Origin: Oceanispirochaeta sp.
Lineage (GTDB): Bacteria > Spirochaetota > Spirochaetia > DSM-2461
DNA: 64,000 bases
Assembly: GCA_963663385.2 (NCBI GenBank)
Contig: CAXXXD010000004.1
Location: 96,001-160,000 of the forward strand
Direction: 5' to 3'
Part shown: piece after piece, positions 13,333 through 63,480 of the stretch
How positions within the stretch are numbered: position 1 is the first letter of the stretch
Layout of the letters: each line of letters opens with the position of its first letter
Position numbers and translations under genes: made by a program
The notes under the pieces: model-generated
Told to the model about the DNA's origin: nothing
Seen by the model: the letters and a program-made list of their open reading frames with translations, nothing else
Database searches by the model: none

Positions 13333-13483
13333 GGCAGACTAAGGACCCTTAATGCTAACGGTGTCTGCTTATATCTTGATTTAATGAGGTGTAGGTAGTA
13401 AATGCAAGGTGTCCGGACTGCAGGGAATTCCCTCACCGGGACGTACTGGAATTCTGCCTTACCTTCTGTAAAAGGCAGAGTTT
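13333..13483 (+). ncRNA. Conserved structured 5' leader, copy 1 (candidate riboswitch/translational attenuator)
   Basis: GCAGAC-TAAGGACCCTTAATGCTAACGGT-GTCTGC core repeated at 55640 and 60052; alternative helix and SD-sequestering hairpin downstream. Confidence 0.75.
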
Positions 13484-14509
13484 ATGAAAAAAGTAGAAAA
13501 AGGTTTTATCTTTACCAGTTCCGCGTATGTTCTGAAGAACAGTCAGGTCAGATATTACGATTCCATAGAGAAAAATCCGGTTGTAGGAGATGTGGTTTAT
13601 GGAGAAATCTGTCATATAGGCCAGCATTCCAGTCTGGAGAATAAATCCGGTCGAATCCATCAAATCCATAATGGCAGCCGGGCTCTTTTTGTCTTCGGTA
13701 ATCGATACGCTCCGGACTATTATGAGGCTTTTGTACCCGACAGTTTTGAGCCGGAAGTGGATCTTCATGCCCGCAGCGGATTAATCGGTACCGTAAAAAC
13801 AAAAAACTCCCTGATCAAGGATCCATCGAGGGTTAGAATCCTGGGGTATCTCTGTGACGAAAGCGGTAAGGTTATCAACACAAGAGATTATCCTCTGATT
13901 GTGCCCAGAAAAAAGGAAAAGGTGTTCCCCCGGTCAAAGATGATTCTTGTCTGCGGAACTGCCATGAATTCCGGAAAAAGCGTATCCGCCGCTTCTATCT
14001 GCTGGGCCCTGTCCAGGATGGGCCATACGGTCAAAGGATCCAAAATCACGGGAACCGCAAGCCTGAAAGATATTCTGCACATGAATGATGCGGGAGCCGA
14101 TTCATTTTCCGACTTCACATACCTTGGATATCCCACAACCTATATGCTTGATGAAAAAGAGATTGTGGAGGTGTTCAATCATATAGATCTTAAATACGCA
14201 AACAATCCGCAGAATTACTGGGTTGTGGAATTTGCCGACGGAATCAACCAGAGGGAAACGGAAATGCTGTTAATGCATCCCGATGTCAGGAAGAGAATAC
14301 ACAAGCTGGTTTTCTGTGCCAACGATGCTTTCGGTGCAATAGGAGGCGTAAAGTATCTAAAGGAAAAGATAGATCTTACGCCTGATCTGATTTCCGGAGT
14401 CTGTACAAGTTCACCTCTGCATATGCGGGAGCTGAGCAAAGTTACAGATATTCCTATTTTTGATAATATGAATATTAACATTGAAGAGATTAGAGAGAAA
14501 ATAGTCTGA
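13484..14509 (+). CDS. DUF1611-related P-loop-like protein
   Basis: GNRYAPD, VCGTAMNSGKS, KITGT, VVEFADGINQRET; family assignment from recalled motifs. Confidence 0.65.
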   Translation: MKKVEKGFIFTSSAYVLKNSQVRYYDSIEKNPVVGDVVYGEICHIGQHSSLENKSGRIHQIHNGSRALFVFGNRYAPDYYEAFVPDSFEPEVDLHARSGLIGTVKTKNSLIKDPSRVRILGYLCDESGKVINTRDYPLIVPRKKEKVFPRSKMILVCGTAMNSGKSVSAASICWALSRMGHTVKGSKITGTASLKDILHMNDAGADSFSDFTYLGYPTTYMLDEKEIVEVFNHIDLKYANNPQNYWVVEFADGINQRETEMLLMHPDVRKRIHKLVFCANDAFGAIGGVKYLKEKIDLTPDLISGVCTSSPLHMRELSKVTDIPIFDNMNINIEEIREKIV

Positions 14510-14511
14510 AA

Positions 14512-14997
14512 ATGGACACGATGCTGAAAGCGCCTGCTCTTTGCAGCAACCTTGAGCTTGAGCAGTTTAAAAAACTGCTATGTTTGCGTCCCGAGATTGA
14601 TTCCAGAACCATTGAAAGGAGAATCCTGAAGGCTCATACACTGGCTTTTGCTTATGTGGAATCCGTTCTTGTCGGCATCGGGGCTGTTAAATTCGCTAAA
14701 CCGGGTTTCCGTCGCAGAGTTCTGGAGGGACAGAAAGTCCGTCTTCTGGAGGAACTCCCCGACAGGGAACTGGGCTGGCTTTATGTAAAAGAGGATTTCA
14801 GGGGAAGGGGGATCGGATCGGTTCTTTCCTCCGATCTGATTGGAGTTCTGAAGAATAGTCAGGCATATGCATTGACGGATTCTGAAAATCCTGTGACGGG
14901 AAAAATGCTCAGTTCCGGAGGTTTTTTTCAATGCGGCGAGATTCTTCTGGCGAATCACCCGTCCTATTTCCTCTATTTAAAAGACAGCACCCCCTAA
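14512..14997 (+). CDS. GNAT-family N-acetyltransferase
   Basis: ELGWLYVKEDFRGRGIGS acetyl-CoA-binding motif A. Confidence 0.8.
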   Translation: MDTMLKAPALCSNLELEQFKKLLCLRPEIDSRTIERRILKAHTLAFAYVESVLVGIGAVKFAKPGFRRRVLEGQKVRLLEELPDRELGWLYVKEDFRGRGIGSVLSSDLIGVLKNSQAYALTDSENPVTGKMLSSGGFFQCGEILLANHPSYFLYLKDSTP

Positions 14998-45420: not shown

Positions 45421-45441
45421 TATCCTCTGTTATTTCTATCG

Positions 45442-45487
45442 GGTTCATTATTTTAAACCAAAAAACAGTATATTCAGTTTCTTCCGG
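45442..45487 (+). promoter_or_regulatory. Shared 46-bp upstream element, copy A
   Basis: 39/46 identical (manual count) to 47318-47363. Confidence 0.7.
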
Positions 45488-45611
45488 TCTTCTCGAAATA
45501 TATAATTTTTTCTGATTTCCGCAGGTCTGTGTTAATCGGGATTTTCATTTATGAAGCCCGAAATCGCGTCCCTGATAATGATAAAAATATTCAAATTTTG
45601 AGAGGCTGAAA

Positions 45612-47258: not shown

Positions 47259-47317
47259 ACTCTCACGTTTCAAATCCGGGGCAGAAATCGCCGTTGACGG
47301 CACCTGATATTCAGTCC

Positions 47318-47363
47318 GGTTCATAAATTTAAACTAAATAACAGTATATTCTGTTTTTTCTGG
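47318..47363 (+). promoter_or_regulatory. Shared 46-bp upstream element, copy B
   Basis: 39/46 identical (manual count) to 45442-45487. Confidence 0.7.
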
Positions 47364-47451
47364 ACGCCCCGGAGTTTATAGTTTTCTAGTGCCGATACCT
47401 TCACCGCTTCGGTAAAGGTAAAGGTGAAAAGTATTTTTCAAGGAGGAATAG

Positions 47452-54327: not shown

Positions 54328-55485
54328 TCAGGCAGCACAGGGCCGCAGGTTTTTCTCCTCTTTTTGTTTTTTACACAGGATCTGCCGTGTAATGATGACA
54401 GCATACAGAAAGACGGAAACCGCGGCTGAGAGAAGTATCAGGGAATAGAGGCCTGTATTGGGGATAAATATCTTATACAGAAAGGTTCCAAGTACCGCAA
54501 AGGCGACAAAGGGACAGATAAGGCTCCACGTTTCTATATAAAACTTTCCGGTATTCAATTCTCTGGAAAAATACTCCTTCATGACAGAAAGACCGAATCC
54601 CAGGTACCAGAACTCAAAAACAAATCCGCCCAGTACAATCAGGACTGCAAGCCAGTGCATATGGAACTCAAACTGTTTTTCAAAGTAGTGAACAAGTCGG
54701 AATCCGCTGATGGACAGGAGGGTTGTAATGGGAACAGGAGAGAGCAGGGCGGGCATCCCTTTGGGGGCAGGCAGAGATTCTGAATTGAACTGATTTTTCA
54801 GGGCATGGTAGAAGAACAGCCCAAAGAGGAAGACGGTCTGTGATCCGGAAAGAAAAGATAAAAAGGCGGCGATCCCGCTTATGACAGGAGAGTTGGCCAT
54901 CGCAGCCAGTCCCGTACCAGTTACAGTCGTCATTGCCAGAGCAAACGGATGAAGAAGCCAGCTGAAATTTATCTTATCCAAAGAAAAATTTCGGGAAAAA
55001 AGTGACATGAGCATACCTGTCTCTTTTACTATAATGGCTGCCCACAGGATACTCCATAGAGTCAGGGCCGGTGCCATCAGTAACTGAAAATGGTTATGGA
55101 AAAGGGGAACAAAAAACCGGACTACCGCAATAAACACATTAAAAGTCATACCAATTGAAATAAACGGGGTGACAAGAGTGGTGTTATGAAGGGAATCTTT
55201 CTTAAGCTGATAGTATGCGGGAGATCTCATCCATCTGAAAAGACGGGTGAAAAGCTGAGCCGAAAGGATTAAATGAACCGTCCCGAATAGCAGCATTATG
55301 CCCATTAGCAGGGGAAAAAGAACAGACTGAAAGGGGGATAAACCGTCAAATTGAATCCCGTTAAAAGATATAAGACCAGGTCCGCTGTAATAAGTATACT
55401 GAAGAAAGGCAAACGGGATAATTGAGATGCCGCCCGCACCTACAGCTGAAAGAAACTGAAGAGGATAAAACTCTTTCTTTTCCAT
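54328..55485 (-). CDS. Multi-pass membrane protein, TsoY-like (tentative)
   Basis: About 10 hydrophobic segments; N-terminal PLQFLSAVGAGGISIIPF resembles the TsoY family as recalled. Confidence 0.5.
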   Translation of the reverse strand: MEKKEFYPLQFLSAVGAGGISIIPFAFLQYTYYSGPGLISFNGIQFDGLSPFQSVLFPLLMGIMLLFGTVHLILSAQLFTRLFRWMRSPAYYQLKKDSLHNTTLVTPFISIGMTFNVFIAVVRFFVPLFHNHFQLLMAPALTLWSILWAAIIVKETGMLMSLFSRNFSLDKINFSWLLHPFALAMTTVTGTGLAAMANSPVISGIAAFLSFLSGSQTVFLFGLFFYHALKNQFNSESLPAPKGMPALLSPVPITTLLSISGFRLVHYFEKQFEFHMHWLAVLIVLGGFVFEFWYLGFGLSVMKEYFSRELNTGKFYIETWSLICPFVAFAVLGTFLYKIFIPNTGLYSLILLSAAVSVFLYAVIITRQILCKKQKEEKNLRPCAA

Positions 55486-55638: not shown

Positions 55639-55817
55639 AGCAGACAAAGGACCCTTAATGCTAACAATGTCTGCTTATATCTTTTTTATTCGAAGGAATT
55701 TTCCTGAAAGGGAAATCGTTGAAGGTATAAGTAGTTTCGTTGTAGGTATATAGGGGGGGAGGTCTCGGTCTCCCTGAACAGCGCAGCTCCTCTCTTCGCC
55801 TTCGAAAAGGAGTCATT
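55639..55817 (+). ncRNA. Conserved structured 5' leader, copy 2
   Basis: AGCAGACA-AAGGACCCTTAATGCTAACAA-TGTCTGCT; alternative helix and SD-sequestering hairpin. Confidence 0.75.
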
Positions 55818-56021
55818 ATGAGTTCCAAATTATGGTTTGTTACAAACGGTGTACAGCTGATTCATGTCTTCGAAAAAAGGTCCCTGGCCGAGCAGGAGTT
55901 GAAGAAGTATCAGGACGATCCTGATTACGGTTACTATGATTGCTACGGTCTGGATATCGACGATCTGGAAGACTATCCGGAAGAATATGATATTGCTCTG
56001 GACGAAGGATTCCTTGATTAA
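55818..56021 (+). CDS. Small acidic protein (67 aa), unknown function
   Basis: Strong SD AAGGAG; first ORF after leader copy 2; D/E/Y-rich C-terminal half. Confidence 0.75.
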   Translation: MSSKLWFVTNGVQLIHVFEKRSLAEQELKKYQDDPDYGYYDCYGLDIDDLEDYPEEYDIALDEGFLD

Positions 56022-56070: not shown

Positions 56071-57279
56071 TTGAAAGATTTTCTTGTCTTCGAAGGGATT
56101 AGTAAATCCTTCGGATCTGTAGAAGTTATCAAAGATCTGAATCTTAACGTCAAAAAGGGAGAGGTCTTCAGTCTGTTGGGACCATCGGGCTGCGGGAAAA
56201 CCACTCTTCTGAAAATATGCGGTGGATTTGAAGAACCCGATGCAGGCAGGATGCTGTTGAATGGCAAGGATATCCTGTCCCTGCCGGGGCATAAGCGTCC
56301 GGTCAATACGGTATTTCAGAATTATGCCCTGTTTCCGCATCTGTCTGTGGGTGAGAATATAGCTTTTGGTCTGAAAGTTTCCCGCAAAGGGTTTTCCAGA
56401 AAAGAGATTTCCAGGGAAGTGGACTGGGCTCTCGATCTTATTCAGATGAATGAATATATCCATAGCAGACCTTCAGAGCTATCAGGAGGTCAGAAGCAGC
56501 GGGTTGCTATTGCAAGAGCGGTTATCAACAAACCGGAGCTCCTGCTTCTGGACGAGCCTTTGGCTGCGCTCGACCTCAAACTCCGTCAGAAAATGCTGCT
56601 GGAACTGGATCAGATTCATGACGAAGTAGGCATAACTTTTCTTTTTGTAACCCATGACCAGGGGGAGGCTATGAGCCTCTCCGACAGAATCGCCATCATG
56701 AACCTGGGGAAAATTGAGCAGGTAGGATCTCCCGCGGAGATCTATGAAAGTCCTGTTTCCAGTTTTACAGCGGCTTTTATTGGTGATACGAATTTTTTTG
56801 ACGGGATTGTCAAATCCCAGAGTGAAGACGGTCAGTATTCAATACTTGATATTGAAGGACTTCCGTCAGCCCGTTGCTACAACGATCAGGCTCATACAGT
56901 GGGGGACCATATCAACCTGTCACTGAGGCCTGAGAAGATCAGGATCAGCAGGAAAGAACCCGAAACTGACAAGTCCCTGAACATTATTAAAGGGGTTGTG
57001 GAAGATAAGGTCTATCTGGGGGCGTATACAAAATACTGGGTTCGCTGCGGAAACTGGCTGATTGTTGTCCTTAATGCTCACAGGCATTTTCTGCTGGACC
57101 GGAATCCTCCGGAATGGGAAGATGAAGTCTGGCTCAGCTGGCATCAGGACGACGGTTTTATATTGCTGAAATACAGGAAAAAGGACGAAGTCCTTTTAAC
57201 GAATCCTGATGAAAAATATGCCGGGATGACCCCTGATCTACAGCCGGGGGCCATACTGCAGTCGGAAGAAGACTCATGA
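56071..57279 (+). CDS. potA: Spermidine/putrescine ABC transporter ATP-binding protein
   Basis: GPSGCGKTT, RPVNTVFQNYALFPH, LSGGQKQRVAIARA, TOBE-like C-terminus. Confidence 0.9.
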   Translation: MKDFLVFEGISKSFGSVEVIKDLNLNVKKGEVFSLLGPSGCGKTTLLKICGGFEEPDAGRMLLNGKDILSLPGHKRPVNTVFQNYALFPHLSVGENIAFGLKVSRKGFSRKEISREVDWALDLIQMNEYIHSRPSELSGGQKQRVAIARAVINKPELLLLDEPLAALDLKLRQKMLLELDQIHDEVGITFLFVTHDQGEAMSLSDRIAIMNLGKIEQVGSPAEIYESPVSSFTAAFIGDTNFFDGIVKSQSEDGQYSILDIEGLPSARCYNDQAHTVGDHINLSLRPEKIRISRKEPETDKSLNIIKGVVEDKVYLGAYTKYWVRCGNWLIVVLNAHRHFLLDRNPPEWEDEVWLSWHQDDGFILLKYRKKDEVLLTNPDEKYAGMTPDLQPGAILQSEEDS

Positions 57280-58133
57280 AGAAACATGAGCTTGTGCTGA
57301 CAACTCCCTCATTCCTCTGGCTCAGTATATTTTTTATTATTCCATCGGCTCTTGTCCTCTTTATCAGCTTCAGGGGAACCGACTCTTATGGCGTCCTTAT
57401 GCCGGTATGGACACTGGATGCGTACAGGTCCCTTTCCGGGATGAATCTGATGCCGGTTATTATCAGGACCCTCAGGCTCAGTCTGTATACCACTTTGATC
57501 TGTCTGATCCTTGCCATTCCGGCCGCCTATGCCATGTCCCGATTGAGCAGGGGGGCGCAGACAATTCTGTTAATGATTCTGGTTGTTCCCTTCTGGACGA
57601 ATTTCCTTATCCGCATCTATGCCTGGAAAGTCCTGCTTCATCCCGATGGATTTATTAAGCAGATTTTTGTCTTTCTAGGGCTGATCGATCAGAATACGAC
57701 CCTTCTCTATACGGAAGGGGCCGTGCTTCTCGTTCTGGTCTATACCTATCTACCTTTTGCCCTGCTCCCCCTATACAGCGCTGCCGACAGCTTTGATATC
57801 ACACTGCTTGATGCCGGCAGGGATTTGGGAAGCAATACACTGCAGCTTATAATCAGGGTTTACCTTCCCGGTATCCGACAGGGGATTATTAATGCGGTCC
57901 TGGTTGTTTTTATCCCGGTCATGGGCAGCTACATCATTCCTGAAATTGTCGGTGGTCCGAATTCGGAAATGCTGGGAAACAAGATTGCCCAGTATGTATT
58001 CACTGACAGGAATATTCCCCGGGCAGGAGCCCTCTCGGGATTTCTGATTCTCATTATCCTCCTTCCATCCCTGATCTCTCTTATAAACAGGGAGAGTCCG
58101 GCCAAAAGCCGGAAGGAGCTGGTGCAGGCATGA
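57276..58133 (+). CDS. potB: Spermidine/putrescine ABC transporter permease
   Basis: PFWTNFLIRIYAW, YTYLPF..LPLY, DAGRDLG. Confidence 0.88.
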   Translation: MKKHELVLTTPSFLWLSIFFIIPSALVLFISFRGTDSYGVLMPVWTLDAYRSLSGMNLMPVIIRTLRLSLYTTLICLILAIPAAYAMSRLSRGAQTILLMILVVPFWTNFLIRIYAWKVLLHPDGFIKQIFVFLGLIDQNTTLLYTEGAVLLVLVYTYLPFALLPLYSAADSFDITLLDAGRDLGSNTLQLIIRVYLPGIRQGIINAVLVVFIPVMGSYIIPEIVGGPNSEMLGNKIAQYVFTDRNIPRAGALSGFLILIILLPSLISLINRESPAKSRKELVQA

Positions 58134-58906
58134 AAAGGAAATCGGCTTTTCCGATGATAATACTCATACTGATTCTTGTTTTCTTCTACCTCCCCCTGTT
58201 TGTACTGGTCATCAATTCATTCAACGCATCCCGGGTCTCTTCAGTATGGGGGGGATTTTCTCTGAAATGGTATAAGAAGCTGCTGGGTGACCAGAATCTG
58301 CTCCGCTCTGTCAAAAATACTGTGATTGTAACAAGTGTCTCGGTATTCTGTTCAACAGTACTGGGGAGTCTGGCGGGTGTGAGCATTGCCCGTTTCAGGA
58401 GCAGGGTGCAAAAAGTGCATTCAGTCTTTATCGCTCTCCCCCTGATCATGCCGGATATCCTGATCGGTATCAGTCTCCTTCTGTTCTTTATCTCATTCAG
58501 GATTCAGCTCTCTCTGCTGACGATTATAATAGGGCATATTACCTTCTGTATCAGTTATGTGGCTTCTACGGTTCAGGCCCGGTTTCAGAATTTTGATTTT
58601 TCCCTGATAGAGGCGGCCCAGGATCTGGGTGCTGACAGATGGCAGGTGTTATGGAAAATATATCTGCCCCTGCTGGCGCCGGGAATCCTCTCCGGTGCCA
58701 TGCTGGCCATGACTCTGTCTCTGGATGATTTTATTATCAGTTTTTTTACGGCGGGGCCGGGTGCTTCAACCCTGCCCATACAAATTTACAGTATGATCCG
58801 TCACGGCTCACCCCCTGTGATTAATGCACTTTCCACGCTTTTTATCGGGTTCACGTTTCTGTTCCTGCTGGTTTATCAGCGGATCTCAAGGAGATTAGAT
58901 CAATGA
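58130..58906 (+). CDS. potC: Spermidine/putrescine ABC transporter permease
   Basis: GFSLKWY, LIEAAQDLGA, SLDDF, TLPIQIYSM. Confidence 0.88.
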   Translation: MKRKSAFPMIILILILVFFYLPLFVLVINSFNASRVSSVWGGFSLKWYKKLLGDQNLLRSVKNTVIVTSVSVFCSTVLGSLAGVSIARFRSRVQKVHSVFIALPLIMPDILIGISLLLFFISFRIQLSLLTIIIGHITFCISYVASTVQARFQNFDFSLIEAAQDLGADRWQVLWKIYLPLLAPGILSGAMLAMTLSLDDFIISFFTAGPGASTLPIQIYSMIRHGSPPVINALSTLFIGFTFLFLLVYQRISRRLDQ

Positions 58907-59949
58907 AAAAAAACTTTTATTACCTGCTGTCGGTTATTGTTTTACTGGCTGTTGTTCTGGGCGGATGTTCCAGAGAGAGCAACCGGAAACTCTATCTGTA
59001 CAACTGGTCCGATTATATCGATGAGGAACTGGTAAAGGCCTTTACAGAAGAAACCGGTATCCAGATTATTATGGACTACTTTGATTCAAACGAGTCCATG
59101 TATGCCAAGTTACGTTCCGGAGCCGATGGTTATGATATTGTATTTCCCACCAGCTATATGGTGGAAATCATGAACGCCGGAGGCATGCTGCAGAAAATCG
59201 ATCATGGAAAGCTGGCGAACCTGAAGAATATTGACCCTAAGTTCACCGTCCTTTCGGTCGATTCCGAAATGGAGTACTCTGTTCCCTATATGGTCAGTAC
59301 TACCGGGATAGGGTATCTGGAATCCGGGCTGGGGGAAGTTGAATCTTTGTCCTGGGATATCTTTGCTTCCCCGGATTATTCATCCAAAATGACAATGCTT
59401 AATGATGTGAGAGAGACGATCGGGGCTGCTTTAAAGTACCTCGGTTACTCCTACAATTCCAGGTCCGGACAGGAGCTGGCGGAAGCCAGAGATCTACTTA
59501 TTTCCTGGAAGAGGAATCTGGCGAAATTTGAGAATGATCAGTATAAGAACGGACTGGTCAGCGGAGAGTTTTCCATATGTCAGGGTTACTCGGGGGATAT
59601 CCTTCAGGTTCAGGAAGAGCGGGATGATCTTCGCTTTATTGTACCAAGAGAGGGCACTTCCATCTCCATTGATAATATGGTGATTCTCAGGAATGCGAAG
59701 AATACGGATGCGGCTTATGAGTTTATTGACTATATGTTAAGGGGTGAAGTTGCTGCCTCCAACATTGAGTATGTGTACTACCTGGCTCCCAATACGGCGG
59801 CATACGGTCTTCTGAGTGATGAAATTCGAAATGATCCGGCTGTCTTCATTTCTGATGATGTACTTGAGAATTCCGAGATTCTTCTGGATCTGGGGGATGA
59901 TAATGAACTGTATAGTCGAACCTGGGATGAAATAAAGTCTGCAAAATGA
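58903..59949 (+). CDS. potD: Spermidine/putrescine-binding lipoprotein
   Basis: Lipobox LGGC; YNWSDYID, FDSNE.MYAKL, YSVPYM, YSGD. Confidence 0.88.
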   Translation: MKKNFYYLLSVIVLLAVVLGGCSRESNRKLYLYNWSDYIDEELVKAFTEETGIQIIMDYFDSNESMYAKLRSGADGYDIVFPTSYMVEIMNAGGMLQKIDHGKLANLKNIDPKFTVLSVDSEMEYSVPYMVSTTGIGYLESGLGEVESLSWDIFASPDYSSKMTMLNDVRETIGAALKYLGYSYNSRSGQELAEARDLLISWKRNLAKFENDQYKNGLVSGEFSICQGYSGDILQVQEERDDLRFIVPREGTSISIDNMVILRNAKNTDAAYEFIDYMLRGEVAASNIEYVYYLAPNTAAYGLLSDEIRNDPAVFISDDVLENSEILLDLGDDNELYSRTWDEIKSAK

Positions 59950-59983: not shown

Positions 59984-60011
59984 TTGACAATCTGTAAATA
60001 TGGATTATTTT
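59984..60011 (+). promoter_or_regulatory. sigma70-like promoter of leader copy 3
   Basis: TTGACA-N16-TATTTT. Confidence 0.5.
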
Positions 60012-60051
60012 TTGTGTTAATTCTGCAAGTTTTTTTAACACTTGTACAGGC

Positions 60052-60197
60052 ACAGACTAAGGACCCTTTATGCTAACAAAAGTCTGTTATCATCTTCATG
60101 TGTGCAGAAAGGTCTTGGAGTTGATTTCAGGAATGTTTCGTAGGGGGGATTCCCCTCTTTTTCCATCATGCCTCTCCTCTCGTGAATAGAGGGATAA
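60052..60197 (+). ncRNA. Conserved structured 5' leader, copy 3
   Basis: ACAGACT-AAGGACCCTTTATGCTAACAAA-AGTCTGT with compensatory changes relative to copies 1 and 2. Confidence 0.72.
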
Positions 60198-60272
60198 ATG
60201 GTATTACAATTATATTTCCTGCTTGTATTGATATTATTGCCGATGTGGATGATGACCGGGATATTGCTGTAG
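60198..60272 (+). CDS. Putative 24-aa hydrophobic peptide MVLQLYFLLVLILLPMWMMTGILL
   Basis: SD-like AGAGGG upstream of the ATG; uncharged, almost wholly hydrophobic sequence; ends 13 nt before the next gene. Confidence 0.45.
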   Translation: MVLQLYFLLVLILLPMWMMTGILL

Positions 60273-60285
60273 ATTGGGGGAAATT

Positions 60286-61356
60286 ATGGATACTGATGAA
60301 TTAGTGGATAACGCTTCAGGTCAGTTGAAATCCGTATTGGAATCTCTAACTGGTTTAAGAGATGAAGTTCTGGATTCCTCAAGGAGTCTGGAGGAGAGGC
60401 TTGAGTCATACCAGGATATTATTGCCTCGGAGGTCGGGGACACCATCCTGAGCAGGATGAGAAATTTAGAGAGAAATGCGGGACTGAAACAGCTCTATAT
60501 CAAATTTGAAGGCAGTAACCCCTCCGGTTCACAGAAAGATCGAATTGCGTTTGCCCAGGTTGATGATGCCATGCGGAGGGGGTATAAAAAGATCGTATTT
60601 GCTACTTGCGGAAATTATGGCGTTGCTATTGCCTTTGCCGCATCTCTGGCCGGGATTGAATGTAAAATCTATATTCCGGAAACCTACCATACAAAGAGAG
60701 AAACTGAAATCCTGAAATTTGGAGTTCAAATTGTCAGAAGAGGCAAGGACTATGAAGAATCTGTTTATCTGTCCAGTCGAGAGGCTGTCGAGTTTGACTG
60801 TTATGATGCAAATCCGGGGGGAGTAAACACAAACCTGCAGATCAAAGCCTATGCAGAGATATCTTATGAAATTTACGATGAGTTGAGAGATGCTCCTGCC
60901 ATAGTGGCTGTTCCAGTATCAAACGGGACTACATTGACCGGGATTTACAGAGGATTTGTCTCTCTGTACAGAAGAGGGAAAACCTCAAGAATTCCCAGAA
61001 TAATAGCAGGTTCAAGTTCAAAGAAGAACCCCATTATTGTCTCTTTCAAACGGGGACTGGATGTTTGTGAAGATCTTGATCCGGCTACTGTGAAAGAATC
61101 GGTAGTCAACGAACCTTTGATTAACTGGCACTCAATAGATGGCAATATGGCATTGAGCGCCCTTAAAGAGTCACAGGGCTGGGCATCGGATGTCAGTGAC
61201 AAGAGCATGATGAAATATGCCAGTCTTCTTAAAAATCAGGAGGGATTGTCTGTTCTGCCGGCTTCAACAGCCGGTTTAATAGCCCTTGTGAAGTATAATG
61301 AAATGCAATCTCTTCCGGGAGATCGTTATGTCGCTGTTATTACAGGAAGGAAATAG
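60286..61356 (+). CDS. Fold-type II PLP-dependent enzyme (threonine synthase-like)
   Basis: KFEGSNPSGSQKDR PLP-lysine motif, ATCGNYG, VPVSNGT; N-terminal helical extension. Confidence 0.85.
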   Translation: MDTDELVDNASGQLKSVLESLTGLRDEVLDSSRSLEERLESYQDIIASEVGDTILSRMRNLERNAGLKQLYIKFEGSNPSGSQKDRIAFAQVDDAMRRGYKKIVFATCGNYGVAIAFAASLAGIECKIYIPETYHTKRETEILKFGVQIVRRGKDYEESVYLSSREAVEFDCYDANPGGVNTNLQIKAYAEISYEIYDELRDAPAIVAVPVSNGTTLTGIYRGFVSLYRRGKTSRIPRIIAGSSSKKNPIIVSFKRGLDVCEDLDPATVKESVVNEPLINWHSIDGNMALSALKESQGWASDVSDKSMMKYASLLKNQEGLSVLPASTAGLIALVKYNEMQSLPGDRYVAVITGRK

Positions 61357-61358
61357 GT

Positions 61359-62429
61359 ATGTATATCGATGGTCATGCTGTTGTATATTGTGAGGGAGCT
61401 TTTGCATCGACATATGGGAAAACGGCTCATGGTCTTGTTCGCTATACGCAAAGGTATAATCTGGTTGCGGTCATTGACAGTAGTCTGGCCGGAAGGGATT
61501 CCGGGGATTTTCTTGATAATGCCCCTAATGGTATACCCATAGTCTCATCCCTTAATGAAGCATTTAAAGTAGCGAACTCTCAAACGGTAGAGTTATCCTA
61601 CTTTGTTCTGGGGATTGCCACTGATGGCGGATATTTAACTCAGGATATCAGGTCTGCTGTTATTGAAGCTCTGGAGTCTGGATTGAATGTTGATTCCGGA
61701 CTTCATGACTTTCTTAATGACGACAGGGAAATCAGACTCCTGGCTGAATCATACGGTCTTGGTATTCGTGATATCAGAAAACTGGACGGGAACAGCAACC
61801 ACATGTTCACTGGCAAGATTGAAGAGGTTAAAGCCATAAGAGTTGCGCTGCTTGGCACGGACTCAGCCATCGGAAAAAGGACGACAGCCTGGATAATTAC
61901 CAATGCCATGGCAGACAGGGGGCTCTCGGCAGAATTCATCGGAACAGGCCAGACGGCATGGCTGCAGGGGGCAGACTACAGTATTGTCATGGATTCATTA
62001 CTGAATGATTATGTCAGCGGTGAACTGGAACATATTGTGTGGAAGGCCTGGACTGAAAAAAAAATGGATTATGCCATAATTGAAGGTCAGGGCAGCCTCA
62101 TGAATCCCGGATATCCCGGTGGCTTTGAGATTTTGGCTGCGTGCAGACCCCACGGGATTATTCTTCAGCATTCTCCCTCCCGGAAGGAGTACGACGGATT
62201 TCCGGGGTATCCTCTGGATAGGATAGAGGACCAGATTCACGCTATTGAATTCCTGTCAAAAAAACCGGTAGTCGCCATTACAATTAATCATGAAGGTATC
62301 CGGCGTGATAAAATTGCTGAGGAGTGTCAGGCCCTGGAAAACAAGCTGGGGATACCAGTCGTTGATCCTCTGGTGGATGGTGCAGAACGGATTATTCCGG
62401 TTATTGAAGAGCTGAAAAATGAAAATTGA
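61359..62429 (+). CDS. DUF1611/DgcN-like protein (putative N-acetyltransferase)
   Basis: GKTAHGLVRY, SGLHDFL, GTDSAIGKRTT, GTGQT, IEGQGSL. Confidence 0.82.
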   Translation: MYIDGHAVVYCEGAFASTYGKTAHGLVRYTQRYNLVAVIDSSLAGRDSGDFLDNAPNGIPIVSSLNEAFKVANSQTVELSYFVLGIATDGGYLTQDIRSAVIEALESGLNVDSGLHDFLNDDREIRLLAESYGLGIRDIRKLDGNSNHMFTGKIEEVKAIRVALLGTDSAIGKRTTAWIITNAMADRGLSAEFIGTGQTAWLQGADYSIVMDSLLNDYVSGELEHIVWKAWTEKKMDYAIIEGQGSLMNPGYPGGFEILAACRPHGIILQHSPSRKEYDGFPGYPLDRIEDQIHAIEFLSKKPVVAITINHEGIRRDKIAEECQALENKLGIPVVDPLVDGAERIIPVIEELKNEN

Positions 62430-63480
62430 TGATTTTGAAGTAGTAAAAGTCTGTTTACAGATGAAGGACCCCTATGAGGTCGCCTATGAAAAGTTTGACA
62501 AAGCAGAAAACCTGCTGATCAGAATCAGCGCCGGGAAACTGCATGGATGGGGGTGTATTGCTCCCGATCCTCATGTCACAGGCGAAAATATTGAAGACGT
62601 TTATAGAAAATCTTTAGAGATCCTTCCGGAAGTTCTTCTTAAAAGAGATCCCTTCAGGAAAGCGCTCATAATGAAATATCTGAAAGCGGCAGCTCCGGGG
62701 TTGTTCAGCCTCTGGGCAGGTGTTGATACGGCTCTCTGGGACCTGCTGGGCAAACAGGCCCATCTGCCAATCTGGAAAATCCTGGGAGGATATCGGAACT
62801 ATATCAGTACCAGTGTTACCATAGGTATCTGTGGAATCGACGAGACCCTGGAAAGGGCCCGGGATTTTGAGCTTCAGGGGTTTCATATTCTCAAGATAAA
62901 GGGCGGGAATGATGTTTCGGAGGATATAGCACGGCTTCAGGGACTCCGCTCGGCTCTGGGAACGGATATGAAAATCCGATTTGACGCAAATCAGGGTTAT
63001 TCTGTTGAAGAAGCTCTTTTCTTTGTCAAAAATATAAAAGAACTCGACATTCAGCTGTTTGAACAGCCGACGATTAAATCCAAACCCGATCAGTTGGGTG
63101 CAATTATAAATAAAACAAATATACCAATTATGGCAGACGAAAGCCTGGTTTCTCTTCTGGATGCTTTTTCTCTGGTAAAAAAAGGCCTGATAGATCTGAT
63201 GAATATTAAACTGATGAAAGTGGGCGGGATCACAGAGGCCATCCAGGTCGATGGTCTTGCAAGGGCCGCCGGAGTGGAGGTTATGGTCGGATGTATGGAC
63301 GAAGCGGCTTTGGGTATTTCAGCAGGTCTGCATTTTGCCCTCAGTCGAAAAAACATCAGGTTTGCAGACCTGGATGGCCATCTGGGATTGATTGATGATC
63401 CGTCAATAGAATGCATTTCATTAAACAGGGGGAAACTTTATCCTTCCGGTTCTCCCGGATTCGGCTGGGCAGGGATGTAG
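62419..63480 (+). CDS. Enolase-superfamily dipeptide epimerase/N-acyl-amino acid racemase (L-Ala-D/L-Glu epimerase/DgcA-like)
   Basis: KIKG, RFDANQGY, EQP, MADES, NIKLMKVGG, DLDG. Confidence 0.88.
   Translation: MKIDDFEVVKVCLQMKDPYEVAYEKFDKAENLLIRISAGKLHGWGCIAPDPHVTGENIEDVYRKSLEILPEVLLKRDPFRKALIMKYLKAAAPGLFSLWAGVDTALWDLLGKQAHLPIWKILGGYRNYISTSVTIGICGIDETLERARDFELQGFHILKIKGGNDVSEDIARLQGLRSALGTDMKIRFDANQGYSVEEALFFVKNIKELDIQLFEQPTIKSKPDQLGAIINKTNIPIMADESLVSLLDAFSLVKKGLIDLMNIKLMKVGGITEAIQVDGLARAAGVEVMVGCMDEAALGISAGLHFALSRKNIRFADLDGHLGLIDDPSIECISLNRGKLYPSGSPGFGWAGM

Follow-up and report, generated by a model that had tools for sequence, protein, structure and literature searches.

A conserved, riboswitch-like leader hairpin with a rival helix in Spirochaetia, upstream of polyamine-linked and uncharacterised genes

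The ldcC motif (RF02440, SpF59/ldcC) is an orphan hairpin of 5′ leaders, rich in conserved bases; it regulates arginine, ornithine and SAM decarboxylases as well as PotA, and is found in spirochaetes (PMC5737381). The spermidine riboswitch (PMC10853860) is a SAM-I variant with several stems that works as an OFF switch by termination. Polyamine genes are also preceded by the potE and odc1 motifs, which PMC8632094 places only in Veillonella and alpha-proteobacteria.

We identified three copies of a different leader hairpin in the window, the whole 64-kb stretch of Oceanispirochaeta sp. DNA analysed here, with cores beginning at 13334, 55640 and 60052 on the forward strand. The aptamer-like core of copy 3 (60052-60087; 63.5 bits with covariance model R1) consists of a stem, P1, that pairs 60052-57 with 60082-87 around a 24-nt loop carrying GGA.CC and GCUAAC. 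Positions 60084-60130 can form a second helix, P2, which shares bases with the 3′ strand of P1. In copy 1 (13334-13397), P1 pairs 13334-39 with 13363-68 and P2 pairs 13366-77 with 13386-97; in copy 2 (55640-55733), the strands are 55640-45 and 55669-74 for P1 and 55672-83 and 55722-33 for P2. Copies 1 and 2 have the leader form that we call type A, and copy 3 is of type B. Re-reading the letters of copy 3 bore out the descriptive content of the sequence-only reading. The arms are ACAGACT (60052-58) and AGTCTGT (60081-87), with an outer A-U pair where copies 1 (13334/13368) and 2 (55640/55674) have G-C, an inner U-A where copy 2 has A-U and copy 1 U·U, and a loop core differing at one base from the other copies. 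Also present as described are the alternative helix of CTGTTATCATCTTC (60084-97) with GGAGTTGATTTCAG (60117-30), which is P2 in its type B form with U·U mismatches (p 0.01), a G-run/C-run hairpin (60142-58), the pairing of TCCTCT (60175-80) with AGAGGG (60188-93), and an 18-codon upstream open reading frame (uORF, 60133-60189) whose stop TAG (60187-89) overlaps the Shine-Dalgarno sequence (SD) at 60188-93.

The three copies are the only ones in their genome, and the matches from a scan by species all come from one class. A search of the 5.3-Mb genome with the 19-base core found three exact occurrences, all in the window, none with one to three mismatches and eight with four. R1, built from 25 sequences, gave three matches at E<1e-13 and two at E>1 in the same genome, and matched in 20 of the 38 genomes of the family. 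A pattern search of 61 related genomes found 25 places in 19 of them (three with the reversed-pattern control), and a fixed-length pattern was found in 24 of 401 genomes of the class, across five families (control 0). A scan of one genome per species yielded 18 matches, all titled Spirochaetia and including Oceanispirochaeta, Salinispira and Thalassospirochaeta. When both P1 arms were left free in a metagenome scan, 20 matches were obtained; the ten real ones have a stem of 6-7 bp and TTGAC upstream, and the remaining ten have at most five pairs and no TTGAC. None of the ten real matches has a P1 of different sequence, all being CAGAC or CAGGC with GTCTG. Seven pattern matches in viral contigs, of three sequence types, were dismissed as chance since none scored when one per type was given to R1. 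Likewise, an R1 search of 151 genomes across the phylum gave four weak matches outside the own genome (22-25 bits) that lack the loop words. The working set comprises 54 loci with 53 distinct cores from several Spirochaetia families, with five further class-level loci left out; its leaders are related, and the counts given below are not independent.

The window has no Rfam match at the gathering score, and searches of copy 3, copy 2 and nine loci at E≤10 returned chance-level matches only. We found no description of the motif in the literature searched, which mostly excluded subscription papers; the supplements of PMC5737381 and PMC11109978 may still list it. The available parts of PMC8632094 and PMC11109978 contain nothing matching by lineage or genes. 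By gene context, ldcC is the nearest known RNA. The motif and ldcC have in common ACGGAC followed by AWGCYRA-like words in the same order. For three ldcC copies, 11, 88 and 99 of 2000 shuffles reach the word-order score (0.6-5%), a likeness that serves as a lead only, because the word blocks were chosen after the consensus had been seen. The two ldcC words stand on either side of the 3′ strand of a stem, 11 nt apart, whereas in the motif both lie in one loop; the motif also lacks two ldcC features, the 20-nt 3′ bulge that contains the invariant core and the GCCGA tail beyond the stem. No motif place matched RF02440 at E≤10 (gathering threshold 37.2 bits), whereas all eight real ldcC RNAs from other spirochaete families, used as a positive control, scored 54-57 bits; conversely, R1 matched none of six ldcC loci. 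Given the lack of an RF02440 match and the different architecture, we conclude from sequence and predicted structure that the motif is not a member of ldcC. One candidate with 26.4 bits to RF02440, situated within a coding frame, was put down to chance. Eight of the 401 spirochaete genomes, from two other families and none from the own family, carry canonical ldcC RNAs (L131-L139) before speD-like and decarboxylase genes.

The spermidine riboswitch and the motif share polyamine-related genes and the pairing of an aptamer with an expression platform, but the motif is a single 36-nt hairpin, predicted to be an ON switch acting mostly on translation, and it has no match to the SAM clan in Rfam. 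The DUF1646 and nhaA-I motifs function as Na+ ON switches. Like the motif, they are small hairpin aptamers before mixed stress and osmotic genes (PMC5737381); the motif differs in having no Rfam match and no sodium transporters among the scanned genes, except one TrkH. The potE and odc1 motifs resemble it as leaders of polyamine genes and differ in the lineages given for them (PMC8632094).

Across the working set, P1 has the consensus RCAGAC/GUCUGY around a loop of 23-26 nt. The loop carries GC.AA in 54/54 loci, GGA.CC in 52/54 and the word ANGGA in 49/54. The sequence-only reading had taken the base changes of copy 3 as compensatory evidence for P1, an argument that the expanded alignment of 53 distinct cores does not sustain, as five of the six pairs barely vary: four are invariant and the fifth has a single change (A-U to G·U). 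Two-sided change is confined to the outer pair (G-C 43, A-U 7, G·U 3). The seven A-U cases all come from type B copies of a single genus, and the change is therefore probably about one event, with G·U as a possible intermediate; G·U is the non-canonical change observed in P1. The inner U-A, also claimed as compensatory, is unique to copy 3, the other seven type B copies having U·C and type C having C·A or A·A. The count of P1 pairs with two-sided change (3) did not exceed that of the shuffle control (3.4; 448/500). The paired cells and the covariation score of P1 both surpass all 500 shuffles, although related sequences can achieve both without structure. As a 61-nt hairpin, copy 3 has no extra stability over shuffles (z +0.89), against z -1.26 for copy 1 and z -2.06 for copy 2. 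The sequence-only reading was right that this is a conserved leader RNA with an alternative helix; judged from the alignment, P1 is conserved rather than covarying, with little covariation because it is almost invariant. Two further candidates were rejected: a pseudoknot between the loop AAGGA and a downstream AUCUU, in which position 18 varies between A and C and its partner does not, and a swap of G-C for C-G at the GG/AAC position, present in a single sequence (L108) and not counted.

Each of the 54 copies is sense to the gene whose start codon follows it, and 52 have a TTGAC word within 86 nt upstream. The distance from this -35 word to the P1 arm is 42-48 nt in type A and 64-69 nt in types B and C, so that, with inferred start sites, P1 would begin about 10 bases into the transcript in type A and about 35 in types B and C. 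In all eight type B leaders TTGAC stands 64-68 nt before P1. The promoter-like site of copy 3 (59984-60011, σ70-type, TTGACA/16 nt/TATTTT), which comes after the potD stop at 59949, is weak evidence alone, with one such site found against 1.7 expected from shuffles. Three divergent promoter pairs (G019, G023, G027) carry two separately oriented copies, one per gene.

Behind P1 the leaders fall into type A (34), type B (8, including copy 3), type C (8) and others (4). Types A, B and C make P2 from different sequences, each overlapping P1 at its 3′ end. Of the 51 leaders tested, all of the 54 but three short speA leaders, 41 have a P2 that surpasses dinucleotide shuffles at p≤0.05. Within type A, 401 of 408 P2 cells pair and all 20 changed cells at nine inner positions are still paired, mostly through U-A to U·G changes, with the caveat that picking the partner windows for their best pairing biases the counts upwards; the loop that separates the two strands ranges from 4 to 44 nt. 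A strand able to pair with the whole of the conserved loop was rejected, reaching p≤0.05 in only 4 of 51 leaders.

Folding models suggest that the two helices exclude each other. When prefixes of all three window copies were folded, P1 had a probability of 0.96-1.0 when first made and about 0 later, and the P1 and P2 states differ by no more than a few kcal/mol in many leaders. Holding P1 and the next bases opens the SD further in 30 of 46 leaders and closes it further in none (mean +0.27), compared with a mean of +0.05, 30% more open and 12.5% less open, for 184 shuffled platforms in the same test; eight of the 54 leaders were left out (four without a P2 type, four with a weak SD), and the p-value is overstated, the leaders being kin. 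Under a looser constraint, 26 of 54 are more open and five less open. The type B response is weak (3 of 6 more open; copy 3 +0.04). By prediction, the motif family carries a mutually exclusive expression platform. Downstream of the match at 1492-1546 of locus L040, a U-tailed hairpin whose 3′ arm can pair with the P2 3′ strand resembles a transcriptional platform, and equilibrium folding keeps this hairpin in both states.

We propose the following mechanism. The first 10-70 bases of the transcript would fold into P1 and present the loop with its near-invariant GGA.CC and GC.AA words, as read from the alignment. Later in transcription, a downstream purine-rich strand is predicted to pair with the 3′ side of P1 and the bases that follow it, forming P2 at the expense of P1. 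With P2 formed, a pyrimidine-rich strand would be free to hide the SD (OFF). A ligand that holds P1 would leave the purine-rich strand to pair with the pyrimidine-rich strand instead, and the ribosome site would open (ON). The leaders share two general features of riboswitches, a 5′ position sense to the gene (54/54) and conserved unpaired bases able to form a pocket. That the element switches at the RNA level is quite probable in our judgement, and we lean, with moderate confidence, towards a cis-acting Spirochaetia RNA, not catalogued in Rfam, whose action resembles that of an ON riboswitch at the level of translation. That its putative ligand is a small molecule or ion has slightly less than an even chance. 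The RNA is best called riboswitch-like, as class membership awaits a ligand. Because uptake and synthesis genes would both be turned ON, a polyamine end product is a less likely signal than a stress or precursor signal, for instance a cation, a nucleotide messenger, or arginine, agmatine, glutamate or another metabolite of the amino-acid type. In its boldest form, which we regard as doubtful, the proposal is of a new riboswitch class: a 36-nt aptamer would sense a stress or polyamine-pathway signal and turn ON polyamine uptake and synthesis together with glutamate and peptide ligases, its two loop words being a minimal binding core common with ldcC.

The same RNA switch might instead be operated by a protein that holds P1: CsrA on ANGGA, an RRM protein, S21 or the acidic protein encoded behind many copies. 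CsrA binds GGA in hairpin loops, ANGGA is present in nearly all loops (49/54), and CsrA is encoded in 5/5 genomes checked, yet the invariant GC.AA word and the invariant P1 would be left unexplained by it. Genes for RRM proteins (4 confirmed) and rpsU (3) also lie downstream, and the acidic gene is first at 38/54 loci. Autoregulation by the acidic protein was rejected, since the motif occurs without the acidic gene in two genomes (G013, 96% complete, and G015, 74%), and a protein with about 28% Asp+Glu also speaks against it. We rate a protein holder as an unlikely alternative. It is distinctly improbable that no ligand is involved and that cold, pressure or ionic strength shifts the folding race between P1 and P2, as in cold-shock leaders: RRM, S21, RNase D, isoaspartate methyltransferase, TrkH and MscS genes downstream would suit a stress regulon, and the closeness in energy of the two states in many leaders would suit such a sensor, but the unpaired loop bases are near-invariant across several families, which argues for specific recognition. 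We give equally little credence to a polyamine-sensing OFF switch, in which holding P1 would mean repression as in the spermidine riboswitch. The potA (7) and speA (3) loci fit it, as does the terminator-like hairpin of copy 3 (60142-58), predicted at 0.99 with P1 held against 0.59; this shift is absent from most other type B leaders, however, most loci are not polyamine-linked, and the predicted SD change is in the opposite direction in 30/46 leaders and never in the OFF direction. Least probable of all is a double-stranded DNA operator, a palindromic CAGAC/GTCTG transcription-factor site just downstream of the promoter, which the invariant inverted arms and near-fixed -35 distances given above favour but which fits poorly, as the arm spacing varies (23-26 nt) where a palindromic operator would have fixed spacing and orientation independence, the motif is inverted in 0/54 loci, divergent promoters carry two oriented copies, and P2, with its wobble-only variation and 4-44 nt loop, would go unexplained; the RNA switch fits the same observations.

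The census of genes behind the motif covers 1.5 kb downstream at most loci. At 38 of 54 loci the first gene encodes an acidic protein of 67-68 aa from no known family, and a remnant of it is found at copy 3. Ten of the 54 loci are polyamine-linked, with potA (7) or speA (3) as first or second gene; at one speA locus, genes for carboxynorspermidine synthase and decarboxylase follow. Other first or second genes encode RimK-family ligases (3), D-Ala-D-Ala-ligase-like proteins (2), the P-loop protein with a GNAT acetyltransferase (4), S21 (rpsU, 3), RRM proteins (4 confirmed) and RNase D-like proteins (2). TrkH, MscS, isoaspartate methyltransferase and SET genes stand behind the motif at single loci, and the PRK06381 PLP enzyme does so in the window, in L040 and L047, and as fragments in L057. 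Of 13 speA genes in the own family, three carry the motif; that of the own genome does not. The promoter region of this gene (L175) resembles those of L179 and L180 without the motif that these two carry, suggesting gain or loss of the element.

Within the window, copy 1 precedes genes for a 341-aa P-loop protein without a Pfam match and a GNAT acetyltransferase (13484-14997, +). The Atlas neighbours of the P-loop protein (0.98-0.99) fall into two clusters, with DUF1611 on 16% and MobB on 14% of members, and BLASTP detected no similarity between it and the window's DUF1611 protein. The first gene behind copy 2 encodes an intact acidic protein of 67 aa (55818-56021, +), rich in Asp, Glu and Tyr (~28% Asp+Glu), with a predicted fold of pLDDT 88 and a family of 39 representatives at E≤0.001. 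A fold search with this protein gave no match at E≤0.001 (best Z 4.8), and the best Atlas neighbour (0.84) is unnamed. We speculate that the protein could bind polyamines or mimic nucleic acid. A paralog (L140, G000:C3:1187783-1187983) has a short leader without the motif. Between copies 2 and 3 lies a potABCD-like polyamine ABC transporter (56071-59949, +), of which the scan covered PotA, which exceeds the TIGR01187 cut-off, and PotD, whose best match is below cut-off. Divergent from the copy 2 promoter is a TsoY-family (seleno)protein gene (54328-55485, -; NF047644 above cut-off). Elsewhere in the window, two 76-nt intergenic copies with 76% identity (45434-45509 and 47310-47385) may be a shared promoter or operator.

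Copy 3 is followed by a gene for a PLP fold-II enzyme of the PRK06381 'threonine synthase' family (60274-61356, +; 418.6 bits, cut-off 266), a DUF1611 protein (61359-62429, +) that is DgcN-like but below the DgcN cut-off, and an enolase-superfamily epimerase (62419-63480, +) resembling Ala-Glu epimerase or DgcA, below cut-offs. Ahead of them, a frameshifted and truncated remnant of the 67-68 aa acidic gene (60198-60304, +) was found by tblastn with type B acidic proteins (best E 1.5e-6). Its SD (60188-93) and ATG (60198) open a 24-codon frame whose stop at 60272 adjoins the ribosome site of the next gene (60274). The acidic gene is intact ahead of the same PLP gene at L047 and L057; the PLP enzyme and epimerase genes of L057 seem fragmented. 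A one-off assembly slip is unlikely because three contig runs, which may be the window's source, carry the same letters. From its letters, copy 3 thus appears to be an element with core and P2 intact whose first gene has decayed.

The SD in the hairpin at 60175-60193 (+) serves the gene remnant, and modelling hides it in both states (~0.15-0.19 unpaired). The uORF ending at the SD has no equivalent in the other seven type B leaders and is probably incidental. A short hairpin like that at 60142-63 (+), which with its tract of five U is terminator-like or pause-like, is predicted in 8/8 type B leaders. The ON pairing of copy 3 would cost ~7.7 kcal/mol. Because the remnant frame stops beside the next ribosome site, translation of the 24-codon remnant could couple copy 3 to the PLP-DUF1611-epimerase operon; alternatively, the hairpin at 60142-63 may control the operon, or copy 3 may be uncoupled from it.

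Copy 3 adds little covariation, and the compensatory changes that headed the sequence-only reading are weak evidence, but it suggests that the element outlives the loss of its first gene, and the motif family behind it is worth testing. We suggest this family as an orphan riboswitch candidate: it is compact, its expression platform can be seen, and the direction of switching is predicted. If the core common with ldcC is real, it bears on an orphan open since 2017, and should both a new class and the shared core prove true, this compact RNA would offer a tractable route to the ldcC ligand. The putative regulon ties the acidic 67-aa protein, the PLP-DUF1611-epimerase cassette, the P-loop/GNAT pair and the RimK- and Ddl-like ligases to polyamine supply, and discovery of the ligand would therefore give these uncharacterised genes a physiological context.
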